NCBI GenBank assembly: GCA_026025075.1
Contig: JAPEUI010000059.1
Coordinates: 1-64,000, forward strand
Direction of reading: 5' to 3'
DNA length: 64,000 nucleotides
Origin: Vezdaea acicularis
Lineage: Eukaryota
The position numbers and the translations under genes were made by a program. The stretch's first letter is position 1, and each line of letters starts with the position of its first letter. The notes under the pieces are model-generated. The model made no database searches, was not told where the DNA came from, and saw only the letters and a program-made list of their open reading frames with translations. Of the stretch, positions 9,269 through 15,347 are shown piece after piece.

Positions 9269-10289
9269 ATGGTCAGTGTCTACTGCAGATCCATCGCGAG
9301 CTGGCGGTTAGCCTCATCAAACCCATCTAACCTGGAATATAGACATCCATAGGCACAGGCTACGATCTTTCCAACTCTGTCTTCAGTCCCGACGGCCGCA
9401 ATTTCCAAGTCGAGTATGCCGTCAAGGCCGTAGAGAATGGTGGGACATGCGTGGGGCTGAGGTGCTCCGACGGGGTCATCCTTGCTATCGAGAAAATCAC
9501 AACATCCAAACTCCTCAAGCCGGGCACAAACAAGCGCATCAGCACAATCGACAACCATGCAGGCGTCGTCACAGCGGGGCTTGTTCCGGACGGCCGCCAC
9601 TTAGTCTCGCGTGCACGAGATGAGGCTGCGTCCTGGCGTCGAACTTACAAAGGACCGATCCCCATTGCCAGTCTGGCAGACAGGTTAGGGAGCTACGTGC
9701 AGGCATATACGCTGTACAGCAGCGTACGACCGTTTGGTATCACGGCGATAGTTGCGGGCTGGGATAGCGAGAAGGAGGCCAAGGTAGACGGAGAGGTGGG
9801 AGGAGGGCCCAAGGTCGGCGCAGGCGGGAGGATAGACGGAGGCCGGAGAGGAGGTCCAGGGCTTTACATGATCGAGCCAAGTGGACTATACTGGGTGAGC
9901 TCCGAAAGACCCGTTTTGTGCGGACACCAAAAGAAAATTGCTGATGAATATGACAGGGTTATTACGGTGCGGCAACAGGAAAGGGGCGACAGGCAGCAAA
10001 AGCCGAGCTCGAGAAACTAAGTCTCGCAACGAACCCGCCTACATTGCTCGAGGGCATCAAGGAGGCAGCACGCATCATCTACGTCGCACACGACGACAGC
10101 AAAGACAAGGACTTTGAGCTCGAGATGACATGGATAAGCGGCTGGGACGGGCCGACAAAGGGCCGGCACGTAGAGGTTCCCAAGGAGCTTAGAGAGGAGG
10201 CGGAGAAAGCTGCCAAGAAGTCTCTTGAGGGAGACGAGGAAGAGGAGGAAGAGGTGAAGGAGGGTGAGACGGAGAAGATGGAGGAGTAG
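9269..10289 (+). CDS. PRE10: 20S proteasome subunit alpha type-7 (alpha7)
   Basis: ATG-only first coding exon, intron 9272-9342, then TSIGTGYDLSNSVFSPDGRNFQVEYAVKAVENG. Also YTLYSSVRPFG, LYMIEPSG, GKGRQAAKAELEKL, KDKDFELEMTW and an acidic tail. Confidence 0.95.
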
Positions 10290-11359
10290 ACGGCGGCTTG
10301 CGGCTGTAGCATTAGATCCTGCGCTGTACTATTCCAACGAGCATGAAGCGTTGATTGGCTGAAACCTCCCTTACAGTACTTTCAGATCTACGAATCCGTC
10401 AAGGAGCTCCTGTGTCCCTCTCGTATCAGTCGCTTTTTAAAGGACTAGTTATAGCGGTTTGTCCGCCCCTATGAAGTGCAAGACTTTTTCTTGAAAGACC
10501 ACCCCAGTCCATCAATCCCCTCAGAACTTCCCATTATCCCACAAAGGCATACAATCCTCAAAGAACGCACAACCCCAAGAAGAGGGGTCTCATAGCCAAG
10601 CAAGACACGCACCTGACACGGACCCCCCACAAACTAACCCACGAAACAGACCAAAAACACGCCCAAAACGCACCAGAGGCTTCACAGTGATGGTACTATG
10701 TCTACAAAGACACTGGTGCTGCACCATATTGTCAATAACTTCAGAAACAGCGTATGAGACATCTTTGCTATAGAGCAGACCTCAGAGAGACTACAACACG
10801 ATTTCTTTGCGTGGAAAGGACGGGATGGACGCTTGATAGCTTTGATCATCTTGAAGTCCGGGTTGTAGAATTTGCTATAGAGATAGGATCTCGGTCTCTG
10901 CTGCGTTCTTCTTGCCGGGCATAGTGACAGCGAGGGAATATGGTGGATGTGCGGGAGTTTATCAACGAGAACGATGATAATAGAGGCGAAGATGTTAGCA
11001 AGAACGAAGTGAGAGAAATTCTTTACGGGACAATTTAAAGGGTGATAGTTCAGTCCGGTGCCTGCCAGAAGAACACGATGAGAGTGACGCGGAGTGTTTT
11101 TGTCAGAAAAGCCTCGCGTTAGCCCTATAGGAGCAGTCTCATACATATTTCACTATTCGATGACCCCAAAGACTTCACAGTAGATCCATTCCATTTATGC
11201 ATATAGATAAGTAACCAAACGCCATATGCCAGTCCATACCCCATTTTACCATATCACCCCGGCCCTACGACAATGAGAAGATCATGAGTCCATAACAGAT
11301 CTGTTGATATCAAGAGAGCCGATAGTGATGAAACTTTGTGGAAGAGAAGCTAGACAAGT

Positions 11360-12718
11360 CTATCTCCTTCTTGTAGACCTTACTGGCACACCACCACTAC
11401 CACCAACGCTATTCGCAAAAGTACCTGGCATATCGACCCTGACACCTTCGTCGCCATCATCATCATCTCCCTCGTCACTGCTAGTCGTCGCGCCTTCGCT
11501 AGAACTCTCAACCGACTGTCGGCGTCTGGTCAGCATTGGCTCTGAAGAGCTAGCATAGGCGGCACTACCTGCAGCATATGCTGAACCAGGAGGCTGACGT
11601 CTCAGCGAAGAATACTGCATGTCAGCAGGGCCAGACACGCCCCGTCTTACTTGTGCGTACTGATTAGATAACTGCGGTGAAGGCGGTGAATAAGTTTGGT
11701 ACTGGAACGGGTCAACGGTAGAATGTTGTGACGATGATCGACTTCGCGACATGGGCGTCCAGTCATCTTCATGGGGCAGAGGCATTCGGGCTGTCGGACC
11801 TCTTCCAGACGATGAAGACACCGGTCTGGTCGATGGCTGTGCTCCTTCAGGCATCGAAGCGTAACGTTGTTGAGGGTATTGATTTTGGTAATATTGCGGC
11901 GCCGTGTAAGGCTCTTGTGGATGGGCAGTAGCATTACGCGATACAGGGCGAGAAGCAGGATTCGAAAAAGCAGCATTTGGACCATAGTAGCTCAGAGGAG
12001 CATAGGTAGCGCCGGAAGGAGCGTTCACCATGAAAGCTGGAGGTGCAGCACCACTGCTTAAGGGCGGGCTATCTTGTGGAGTAGCAGCGCTGCTTTTGTT
12101 ACGTCGACGACTGGCCTTTGCTGGAACTAGTGCGGTGGAAGAACTGCGGCTACTCTTCTTCGTTGTCCGATCAGATCCACTGCCACTCTTTATCTTCTTT
12201 TCTCTATTTTTCACTTTCCCAGCACTATTCAATCTTCGAGTGTGCTTCTTCAAAGCTTCATTTTCAGAGTGAGTCAAATGAACAGTCGACTTGCCCTTCT
12301 CTTGAGCTCTTCGAATCCGCTCTAAGGCCCGTTGTATCAGCATATCTTCCTTTTGCTTCATTGCTCTTTGGACTGCCATAGGGTCCGAAGCGTCGGAGTA
12401 ATCCGAATCAGAGGACATGTCTACGTCGTAGGCGCTAGACTCCCCCCTGCGGGTTCGTCCGCCCACGTCGATACCAGTAAAGCGTAGCTGGTCGCTAGCA
12501 TATCGCTGGTGTTGTGGATCTAATTGTATCTGAACTCCTTCGCCATTATCATCATCCTCTTCAGCACTATCAAGCTCTTCAAACCTCCTCTCCTCTTCCC
12601 ACTGTCGTTGTCGTTCCCACTCCTTCCACTTCTTTCCTCCCCTCGCCCCTGGTGGTCTTCCCCAGGGGGGCACATCGTATGGAGTTCGCGGCCGACCACC
12701 TAGACCGCCTCCTCGGAA
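11360..12718 (-). CDS. Long ORF in the -1 frame of YIP3 with no 5' ATG; probable C-terminal trans-frame extension of YIP3
   Basis: 452 open codons from the slippery site (FRGGGLGGRPRTPYDVPPWGR..QKEDMLIQRALERIRRAQEKGK..) to the stop at 11360. It overlaps the last YIP3 codons, and its first in-frame ATG lies about 100 codons in. Confidence 0.8.
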   Translation of the reverse strand, partial: FRGGGLGGRPRTPYDVPPWGRPPGARGGKKWKEWERQRQWEEERRFEELDSAEEDDDNGEGVQIQLDPQHQRYASDQLRFTGIDVGGRTRRGESSAYDVDMSSDSDYSDASDPMAVQRAMKQKEDMLIQRALERIRRAQEKGKSTVHLTHSENEALKKHTRRLNSAGKVKNREKKIKSGSGSDRTTKKSSRSSSTALVPAKASRRRNKSSAATPQDSPPLSSGAAPPAFMVNAPSGATYAPLSYYGPNAAFSNPASRPVSRNATAHPQEPYTAPQYYQNQYPQQRYASMPEGAQPSTRPVSSSSGRGPTARMPLPHEDDWTPMSRSRSSSQHSTVDPFQYQTYSPPSPQLSNQYAQVRRGVSGPADMQYSSLRRQPPGSAYAAGSAAYASSSEPMLTRRRQSVESSSEGATTSSDEGDDDDGDEGVRVDMPGTFANSVGGSGGVPVRSTRRR

Positions 12719-12721
12719 AAA
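12646..12721 (-). other. Candidate -1 programmed ribosomal frameshift cassette (slippery heptamer, spacer and RNA structure)
   Basis: U_UUU_UCC at 12721-12715; spacer GAGGAG; hairpin GCGGUC/GGCCGC (12708-12688) with loop UAGGUGGUC; second hairpin CCCCUGG/CCAGGGG (12668-12646) with loop GGAAGACCA complementary to loop 1. Confidence 0.75.
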
Positions 12722-13230
12722 GCATTCTCGATTGGTCTGTCCATGAATGCGGCATGGCCCAAGATGCTAACACCACTGGCTCCGATCAGCCAAAGTGCTG
12801 TAGAGATCGGAGAGCCAATGATGCCAAGCGGGACACAGATGATGAGAAGACCTGTGTACAGTTGCGAGGTTGTGAGACGAGTAAACCCTAGCTCAAGATC
12901 CTGCCCACCAAGGCGGCCGATTCCCCACATGCCCGCTATGCCGAAGACAAGGACGAAAAGCAATAAGGGCCGCGTTAAAAGGGCGTAAATCGTAAGCATA
13001 AAGAATAATACAACATAATTGCTCGAGAAATACGTCAAGTTGTAATTCACTCGTGCCTGCACCTCTGAGAAATTTGCAGGCTTTGACAAGCGCTTCAGAT
13101 CAAAGAACTCTGAGATGGGCTTCAGATTCGCGAATCTGGAGCCGATCGACTGAGATCGGACGCTGTCAAATCTGCTCCCCAAGTTGAGCCGGGACGTCAG
13201 AGCGTCGAGAGGGATCTGAATTCGTGCCAT
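12700..13230 (-). CDS. YIP3: Prenylated Rab acceptor 1 (PRA1)/Yip3 COPII-vesicle membrane protein, 176 aa
   Basis: NLKPISEFFDLKRLSKPANFSEVQARVNYNLTYFSSNY, two long hydrophobic segments, and WLIGASGVSILGHAAFMDRPIE. Confidence 0.95.
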   Translation of the reverse strand: MARIQIPLDALTSRLNLGSRFDSVRSQSIGSRFANLKPISEFFDLKRLSKPANFSEVQARVNYNLTYFSSNYVVLFFMLTIYALLTRPLLLFVLVFGIAGMWGIGRLGGQDLELGFTRLTTSQLYTGLLIICVPLGIIGSPISTALWLIGASGVSILGHAAFMDRPIENAFSEEAV

Positions 13231-13976
13231 ACTAAGTTATTTGGGATGTGGACTCAGGAGGGTCGAGCTATGAGAGCAAGGAAGAATTTGTGGAAATGTT
13301 GAGGGAATTGCTGCCTGTGCGAGATTGTCAGCAACTCGTATCCAGAATAGCCACCGCCGCAGACTAGTGCAGGCGAGAGGCAAGGCTTAGCTCTACCTTA
13401 TGCAATAGTGCGATGAGTCGAACTTTGTCCAGTGAGGTCCAAGGAGTCGGAGCTGTGGTGAAAGTCGAATATCTGAGGTTGATGAAGATAAAACGTTCTC
13501 CGTGCCTCGCACGGAAATTTTGGCGAGGCGACTTAAGGGGAAAGAGCTAATTTGTCCCTCAGCTAGGGCGAGGGTGGCTCTGCGCTCGCCAACCCAAATT
13601 GGCATGGGCGAAAAGCTCTGCCTCTGGAAGGCGGGACCCGCTATCTCTTGGCTGCCCGAGGCAGCCAAGCTGCTGATTCTTCTATCTCCGAGCGCAAAAT
13701 CAGGTCACCATGATGAAGGGTTGGAAGTTCTCGATGGCACGCGCCCATCTAGAGAGCGTAAGAAAAGTGGGAAAAGAGCGAATGCATGAGAATTAAGTGC
13801 GGCGGGCAGCGACTTATGTAGCAGCGGACGGCCATTTCTAGCCTGCCACGTTCAGGCGAACCGCGCTAAGGGCCTCTAACAGGGAAGTTGCATCCATGCG
13901 AACAGCTCCACGAATTTTCGATCTCGCGATTGTTTGGCATTGGCATTGACCATTGTCTCCGGCGTTTTGTGTCACA

Positions 13977-15347
13977 ATGAGGGTACGACTGTCCGTTGCG
14001 CTGTTGTTGTTCAGTCTCATTGCGAACGTGGCTGGGTGGTCAAAAGAAGGTACGTTGATCCTCGAGGTGGCATGCCACAGCGCACTGCTAAACTCTTCGC
14101 AGATCATGAAATTTTTAGCTTGCGCGATCAGCTCGCAGCGTCTGAAGGGAGTGAAATTACATTCTATGGTATGCACCTGAGCCCGTACTGGAATCGATTT
14201 CACAGATTAACAGCTCACTTTCCTGCAGACTTTCTGGGTGTGAAAGCCTCCGCCTCGCAAGAGGAAATTCAAAAAGCCTATCGCAAAAAGTCCCGTCTGA
14301 TCCACCCGGACAAAGTAAAGAGCCAACTTGCTGCTACGCGGAGTCGAGAACAAGCAGCAGACAAGAAAGCGAAGAAGGGCAAGAAGCCTGGGGTGGTCGT
14401 CAGTAAACCCCCATCCCAAGCCGAAGTCCAGAAAGCAATCAAGAAAGCCACAGAGCGCTGGGCCCGTCTCGGCGTGGTGGCTACCATCCTAAAAGGACCG
14501 TCCCGCCAGCGGTACGACCACTTCTTGAAGAACGGCTTTCCAGCATGGAAGGGAACAGGGTATTACTATGCACGGTTCAGGCCTGGTTTGACTTCAGTGC
14601 TTCTCGGGCTGTTCATTGTTTGCGGTGGCGGGGCCCATTACGGGGCGTTATATATGAGCTGGAAGCGGCAGAGGGAGTTTGTGCAGAGATATATAACCCA
14701 TGCGCGGCGAGCAGCTTGGGGTAATGATGTCGGTATAAGTGGAATTCCGGGTGTTGACAGCGCTGGGACGCCAGCATCCGTGCCAGCGCCTCAAGAGAGT
14801 GATGGCGGTATGCAGGGATTGAACAGAAAGCAAAGAAGAATGCAAGAAAAGGAGAACAAGAAGGGAAAAGGCTCGAAAGAATCTGGCCGGACAACGCCTC
14901 CAGAGGTACCTGTACCGAAGACAGGGCATCGTGGGGACAAAAAGAAAGTAGTTGCGGAGAATGGTAAGGTCCTCCTAGTTGACTCGGTGGGGAACGTCTA
15001 CCTCGAAGAAGAGAACGAGGAGGGGGAAACTGAGGCGTATCTGCTTGATGTAAGTTAAGCCCACTCACCGACAGCCTCTTAGGTACTAATACGTATTGTC
15101 CTTGCAGATCGAGGAAATTCGTAAGCCTACTATCAAGGATACCGCGCTCTTTCGCTTCCCTATCTGGGCTTTCTACCGTTCCTTTGGACGGCTCCTGGGA
15201 AGCGGCTCTCCTGCTACAGAAGCTGCCACGCTTGAAACACAGAGCGACTCTGGCACAGAGAGCGACGATGCTGTTCTGGTAGAGAAGCCCGGCGCTAATG
15301 GCGCTGCATCAAGGAAACGTAACCGACGAAAGGGGAAGCAAAATTAA
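13977..15347 (+). CDS. ER membrane J-domain (DnaJ) protein, Erj5-like, multi-exon
   Basis: Signal peptide MRVRLSVALLLFSLIANVAGWSKE, then DHEIFSLRDQL, J-domain with HPDK, RYDHFLKNGFPAWKGTGYYYARFRPG and a transmembrane segment. Introns near 14050-14103, 14169-14228 and 15049-15107. Confidence 0.85.

Follow-up and report, generated by a model that had tools for sequence, protein, structure and literature searches.

The window analysed here, a 64,000-nucleotide (nt) stretch of Vezdaea acicularis DNA (positions 1 to 64,000 of contig JAPEUI010000059.1, assembly GCA_026025075.1), carries on its minus strand a YIP3/PRA1 gene whose 3′ end overlaps a second long open reading frame (ORF). The first frame, ORF1, matches the PRA1 family in Pfam (PF03208, E-value 1.9e-39, residues 32-172), and its messenger RNA (mRNA) ends GCU UUU UCC GAG GAG GCG GUC UAG. 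The second, ORF2, lies in the -1 frame, which by frame arithmetic is stop-free from 12766 to 11360 and thus overlaps the end of ORF1; for about 85 codons past the YIP3 stop it contains no ATG. A -1 shift from ORF1 into ORF2 would give a predicted long isoform of about 623 amino acids (aa). Homologues of ORF2 number 95 and are found across the Pezizomycotina, the best match other than ORF2 itself showing 45% identity over 100% of the query. Judged from sequence comparison, the stretch around and beyond the YIP3 stop is probably (we put this at roughly 0.85) the 3′ stimulatory RNA of a conserved programmed -1 ribosomal frameshift that ends fungal YIP3/PRA1 genes, of the type described for PaYIP3 of Podospora anserina.

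The phenomenon itself is already known. The long form of PaYIP3 is reported to be made by -1 frameshifting at U_UUU_UCC, with a stem-loop, “possibly a pseudoknot”, 2 nt downstream of the shift site (Malagnac et al., 2013, PLoS One 8:e73772; PMC3777964). The evidence described in that report includes green fluorescent protein fusions and complementary DNAs (cDNAs), the long form is presented as a Yip3 fusion, and the arrangement is said to be conserved across Pezizomycotina (PMC3777964). The account is repeated in a review (Atkins et al., 2016; PMC5009743), and a dedicated search of the literature on the YIP3 frameshift pseudoknot and on P. anserina YIP3 gave Malagnac et al. (2013) as its sole match. 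The window shares with PaYIP3 the PRA1/YIP3 gene, the ORF2 family (an extension confined to Pezizomycotina), the shift site, the bulged stem 1 at a distance of 2 nt and the stop codon within the same 9-nt loop, UAGGUGGUC. The PaYIP3 reporter insert, as printed, aligns base for base with 12723-12665, and a comparison by eye finds one difference in stem 1, a U-A pair in PaYIP3 where the window has C-G, which is compensated. An earlier, sequence-only reading of this DNA had proposed a frameshift stimulator here; all of its motifs are where it placed them on the minus strand (GAGGAG at 12714-12709, for example), and orthology to a locus where frameshifting is reported from experiment (PMC3777964) bears the proposal out. 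The features are collected in Table 1.

Table 1. Reading frames and RNA features at the end of YIP3 in V. acicularis (positions in the window)
Feature	Position	Strand	Description
ORF1 (YIP3/PRA1)	13230-12700	minus	176 aa, intron-less; stop TAG at 12702-12700 (from the ORF listing)
Shift site U_UUU_UCC	12721-12715	minus	zero-frame codons GCU UUU UCC; same heptamer as published for PaYIP3
ORF2	11360-12715	minus	-1 frame; 451 codons from the first codon after tandem slippage, then stop
Spacer GA	12714-12713	minus	2 nt, from shift site to lower stem 1
Lower stem 1, 5′ arm GGAG	12712-12709	minus	partner CUCC 12684-12681; invariant in 44/44 distinct rows
Upper stem 1, 5′ arm GCGGUC	12708-12703	minus	partner GGCCGC 12693-12688; 100% paired
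Loop 1, TAGGTGGTC (DNA), UAGGUGGUC (RNA)	12702-12694	minus	9 nt; contains the zero-frame stop UAG at 12702-12700
UGGUC in loop 1	12698-12694	minus	proposed 5′ arm of stem 2
Upper stem 1, 3′ arm GGCCGC	12693-12688	minus	from pairing counts
GAA bulge	12687-12685	minus	between upper and lower stem 1; third base A, T or G among orthologues
Lower stem 1, 3′ arm CUCC	12684-12681	minus	invariant
GCCC(C)..UGGGG block	12671-12660	minus	CCCY may pair with adjacent GGGG (third stem) or distal GGGG 12649-12646 (hairpin 2)
Hairpin 2 as first drawn, CCCCTGG with CCAGGGG	12668-12662 with 12652-12646	minus	loop GGAAGACCA at 12661-12653
GACCACC	12657-12651	minus	proposed 3′ arm of stem 2; conserved core GACCA 12657-12653
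CCAGGGG	12652-12646	minus	3′ arm of hairpin 2; 3′ limit of nucleotide-level constraint

The comparison behind this assignment draws on orthologous DNA from a scan of metagenome contigs (80 loci, from the 23-sequence alignment A2), which with the window makes 81 sources. One of the two search peptides was MPxWGRPPG, and the sample is accordingly enriched for species with ATG and WGRPPG; the enrichment concerns the amino acids and not the codons used for them. Under a strict junction pattern, 76 of the 81 sources carry the full junction, as 40 distinct strings; L072 and L073 have a junction with a 3-nt loop insertion, and three further sources are cut by contig ends. Read by eye, the 12 sources missed by the first pattern comprise the 3 contig-end cuts and 9 junctions with amino-acid variants, eight of which are absent from alignment A3; the ninth, L063, is also outside A3. 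Pairs were counted over the 44 distinct rows of alignment A3, and codons over up to 47 sequences. The sample is diverse: flanking third codon positions are 40% identical pairwise, and there are 27 clusters at 60%. A pattern scan of genome contigs gave 6 matches, one of them orthologous (L083), and one of viral contigs gave 4 matches, none orthologous; the nine that are not orthologous are chance matches. L083:1-822, which carries a complete fungal YIP3 frameshift junction, sits on a 226-kb contig labelled as a bacterial metagenome-assembled genome (MAG); it looks like a fungal contig binned into a bacterial MAG.

The shift site and stem 1 are both conserved. The TTTTTC of the shift site is identical in 47/47 aligned sequences; of the 46 final bases scored, 42 are C, two T and two A. 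Synonymous constraint begins about 9 nt further upstream (12722-12731 on the minus strand, A3 columns 1-11), where the codon ATC is found in 42/46 sequences and GAT/GAG and GCT are nearly fixed; the 5′ context might influence slippage. All ten pairs of stem 1 are 100% paired, and the upper stem is paired throughout in 40/40 distinct orthologous junctions. At column pair 27-43, 40 rows have G-C and 4 have A-U, a compensatory change; at 29-41, U-G (42 rows) gives way to U-A in the remaining 2. Stem 1, including the GGAG/CUCC extension around the bulge that the sequence-only reading had drawn, is on this comparison solid, and it is the same stem as that published for PaYIP3. Its loop varies only in alignment columns 33-35, and the two -1 frame codons that it holds (GGT GGT) show a synonymous diversity of 0.0. 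The spacer was counted differently at first. GAGGAG had been taken as a 6-nt spacer, and because the GGAG of the lower stem sits inside it the spacer is 2 nt rather than 6, provided that the lower helix forms. Two nucleotides to the invariant lower stem is short of the roughly 5-9 nt typical of an H-type pseudoknot; counted to the upper stem, the distance is 6 nt. The second spacer base (column 20) is opposed to column 56 as G-C in 21 of the distinct rows and A-U in 11, and is unpaired in 12, among them the V. acicularis window, where A faces A.

Beyond stem 1 the question is what loop 1 pairs with. In the window GGTGGTC (12700-12694) is a perfect complement of GACCACC, which had been read as a 7-bp stem 2. 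Its inner five base pairs (bp), UGGUC/GACCA, are paired in 40/40 distinct junctions and are kept in L072/L073, despite the loop insertion, and in L083; the full seven pairs of GGUGGUC/GACCACC are intact in 30/40, and a conserved helix of seven was therefore overstated. Register matters: with the 3′ partners displaced by 1-3 columns, pairing falls from 98-99% to 30-70%. Almost no position varies, and column pair 35-89 supplies the one compensatory change, being U-A in 42 rows, C-G in one (L061, a double change) and U-G in one (L011, an intermediate). The codons over GACCACC are frozen as well, GGA and AGA being identical in 47/47 sequences and CCA in 45/47. We give slightly less than even odds to a pairing of UGGUC in loop 1 with GACCA, about 36 nt further on, because the support consists of invariance plus one compensatory event. 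An upstream GACCA (12737-12733) was considered as a partner for loop 1 and rejected, as it is not conserved in orthologues.

The PaYIP3 reporter insert, 59 nt as printed, ends ...CGCCCCAT, at alignment column 74, before the Trp codon; GACCACC therefore lies too far downstream for the published stem 2, whose 3′ partner must be closer. A short stem 2 of the published type (columns 33-37 with 66-70), reconstructed from the printed reporter sequence and not from the authors’ drawing, has 3-4 bp in the species compared, two of them G-U, and is 79.1% paired; its duplex energy is -2.0 kcal/mol, compared with -5.4 to -11.4 for the long-range pairing. The intervening sequence may fold in more than one way. 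Hairpin 2, drawn in the sequence-only reading as CCCCUGG/CCAGGGG, does not hold as such: pairing across its outer four positions reaches 71.6%, 37/44 rows lack the pair between columns 74 and 93, and the perfect 7-bp form is peculiar to the V. acicularis window. A bulged register is kept instead (columns 68-72 with 93-97, 78-80 with 90-92), at 93-97% paired, the first of these segments at 93.2%. Pairing of CCCY with the adjacent GGGG (columns 69-72 with 79-82) reaches 100% and would give a three-stem pseudoknot. The sequence-only reading had proposed either an H-type pseudoknot or a kissing interaction, possibly switchable; pair counts do not separate the kissing topology (97.1%) from the three-stem one (98.0%). 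The Trp of WGRPP, otherwise invariant, gives way to Arg, Ser or Leu in L007/L032, L058, L028 and L042 through single-base changes (columns 78-79); GGGAAGACCA is unchanged in these orthologues.

The extent of the element is best seen in its synonymous sites. Past the YIP3 stop and within the element, 10/10 fourfold or sixfold degenerate -1 frame codons (GGT GGT CGG CCG CGA, CCC, GGA AGA CCA and GGG) have a synonymous diversity of 0.09 or less, whereas 31/31 control codons for conserved residues, located in upstream YIP3 and in a conserved stretch of ORF2 downstream, have diversities of 0.50-0.79. The Pro codon is CCC in 46/47 sequences (diversity 0.04), and in the codon before it the third-position G is invariant though the amino acid varies (M, V, S). 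This is the ORF2 “start” codon (12673-12671, A3 columns 66-68), which is ATG, GTG or TCG by lineage, and its constant third base points to a role at the RNA level. At the 3′ end the contrast is sharp: the Gly codon is GGG in 43/45 sequences (0.09), and the next codon (Ala) has a diversity of 0.57. Synonymous sites are frozen to about 12646, and therefore constraint that appears to act on the RNA runs to the same 3′ boundary that the sequence-only reading had given, some 30 nt further than the published reporter insert reaches. This suggests a stimulator larger than the fragment assayed in 2013, and if the long-range pairing holds the functional element would span about 12722 to about 12646. 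The frozen synonymous sites are the strongest new observation made here; the extended 3′ half of the signal, which is what is new relative to the 2013 report, is a modest and testable refinement. More specifically, UGGUC/GACCA, whose 3′ arm falls in the WGRPP codons, and a CCCY/GGGG helix could together extend the true stimulator beyond the published one, to about 75 nt, as a pseudoknot with three helices or a kissing contact, a proposal that we advance tentatively and would back at a little under evens.

Under the frameshift reading, most ribosomes would stop at UAG and release the 176-aa Yip3, and a minority would slip back one base on U_UUU_UCC and add about 451 codons to give the long isoform. 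Slippage would move transfer RNA (tRNA)-Phe from UUU to UUU and tRNA-Ser(IGA) from UCC to UUC via a G-U pair, or might involve the P-site tRNA by itself. The slip would be promoted by the G+C-rich bulged stem-loop 2 nt past the shift site, with the stop codon in its 9-nt loop. Stem 1 and the pairing of loop 1 with GACCA may together form the roadblock, an elaborated pseudoknot in which loop 1 kisses a second hairpin or which includes a small third stem. An approaching ribosome would melt the lower stem GGAG/CUCC, leaving the upper stem and stem 2 at the normal 6-nt spacing.

Support for the frameshift reading comes from orthology, from the conservation of the shift site and stem 1, from compensatory changes and from synonymous sites frozen as far as 12646. 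Several points count on the other side. First, a look-up of sequencing runs for 11300-13400 listed none of RNA and frameshifting in V. acicularis itself rests on orthology, and the PaYIP3 structure is reported to have given 1% frameshifting in a yeast reporter and no boost to the slip site of infectious bronchitis virus (IBV) (PMC3777964). Second, positions of stem 2 and hairpin 2 are almost all invariant, with covariation limited to a double change in L061 and a wobble in the L011 lineage. Pair 34-90 is uncoordinated (A34 lies opposite C in 4 of its 5 distinct rows), the two outer pairs of stem 2 are mismatched in 10/40 junctions, pairs of hairpin 2 are broken without compensation in L028, L042 and L063, and the context of the stop codon could be another reason why loop 1 is conserved. 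Third, the stability of the fold is unremarkable: the 101-nt fold has a minimum free energy of -36.4 kcal/mol (z = -0.27), and 76/200 shuffles fold equally well or better. In 5000 dinucleotide shuffles, a perfect complement to the loop within 81 nt downstream arises at a length of at least 7 nt in 5.0% and of at least 5 nt in 52%. The V. acicularis sequence taken alone is not beyond chance, and the support is that of the cross-species comparison. Rfam covariance models gave 0 matches within 12400-13000 at E-values up to 1.

The alternative that survives best keeps the frameshift and disputes the structure: stimulation would need no more than stem 1, with or without the short published stem 2, the block CCC..UGGGGAAGACCA..GGG would act in some other way, and the complementarity of loop 1 would be incidental. 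The block could be an independent hairpin that slows post-shift ribosomes, or it could bind a protein or a second RNA. RNAalifold folds the block by itself, with GACC in a stem (columns 81-82 with 87-88) and no need of loop 1, a 5-nt complement is common in shuffled sequence, as given above, and a single compensatory event backs stem 2. Nonetheless, the third codon positions of loop 1 (U35 and U38) are frozen too, for which a passive hairpin loop has no need, the sole change of U35 to C falls in one of the two lineages with G89, and the reconstructed short stem 2 is weak. We regard this alternative as fairly unlikely.

A second alternative would have ORF2 made separately, by initiation or reinitiation after the YIP3 stop at the AUG (GUG in the window) of “MPxWGRPPG”, with the structure aiding initiation. 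A hairpin just past a start codon can favour initiation, and 44/95 ORF2 homologues are annotated with a start M exactly at “MPxWGRP”. Others have V, T, S or A there, however, and many species use GTG, TCG or ACN as the codon, P. anserina having TCG. The -1 frame also remains free of stops, with a conserved peptide, over about 16 codons further upstream, back to the U-run: FFRGGGLGGRPRTP, which is the -1 frame translation of exactly the stretch upstream of “MPxWGRP”, spans the junction in at least 11 ORF2 homologues, some of them with T, S, A or V for the M. Together with the description of the P. anserina long form as a Yip3 fusion (PMC3777964), this makes separate initiation very improbable. 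Least probable of all, to the point of being barely credible, is a joining of the frames by splicing, whether through the ad hoc introns of public models (13/95 homologues are annotated as fused to PF03208) or through the interval 12705-12650, which begins GT, ends AG and at 56 nt (56 mod 3 = 2) would take frame 0 to -1, but whose removal would delete the most conserved ORF2 peptide (GGRPRTP..PPWGRPP), whose 5′ site GTCTAG is poor and in which no match to a branch site was seen; the eight fused models examined place their junctions in eight different places, as would be expected of predictors forced around a frameshift, and the 2013 report describes twelve P. anserina cDNAs with neither splicing nor editing at the junction (PMC3777964).

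YIP3 is among the very few eukaryotic cellular genes not derived from retroelements that have a conserved -1 frameshift, and it is a reference case for recoding. Frozen synonymous sites extend about 30 nt past the fragment of the sole functional test, and this may account for the weak showing of the published pseudoknot: if the stimulator is larger, the 59-nt fragment of 2013 would have lacked the 3′ half, which would explain both the low yeast activity and the failure to boost the IBV slip site that are reported for it. For annotation, the two ORFs would be one gene with two products, which public models handle badly. Among the models examined, some (P0016, P0018, P0022, P0037, P0042, P0048, P0080 and P0083) fuse PRA1 to ORF2 through invented introns, at the differing junctions already described; others (P0030, P0034, P0058, P0065 and P0070) are ORF2 alone, without a PRA1 domain, yet are named “prenylated Rab acceptor 1” or “Yip3”. 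Neighbouring plus-strand ORFs of the window (9451-10289 and 13934-15058) have translations that resemble an intron-split proteasome alpha-type subunit and a J-domain (DnaJ-like) membrane protein.

Structural parallels also lie in coronaviruses, whose frameshift pseudoknots are of the H-type in IBV, three-stemmed in severe acute respiratory syndrome coronavirus, and of an elaborated or kissing type in human coronavirus 229E and transmissible gastroenteritis virus. As proposed for the window, these combine a G+C-rich stem 1 with pairing of loop 1 downstream, and they may add a helix, lying after stem 1 and ahead of the 3′ arm of stem 2, or loop-loop contact with a second hairpin, in which the window possibly resembles them. 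The window differs in being part of a cellular gene, in its non-canonical heptamer, in a spacer of just 2 nt ahead of stem 1 and in showing no sequence similarity to them. In yeast, the PaYIP3 structure is reported to have been unable to replace the IBV pseudoknot functionally (PMC3777964). Short and long isoforms from one mRNA, by -1 slippage with a downstream structure, are also described for mammalian PEG10 and Ma3/PNMA and bacterial dnaX (PMC3777964). These are unrelated genes with canonical X_XXY_YYZ sites, and PEG10 and Ma3 are derived from retroelements.

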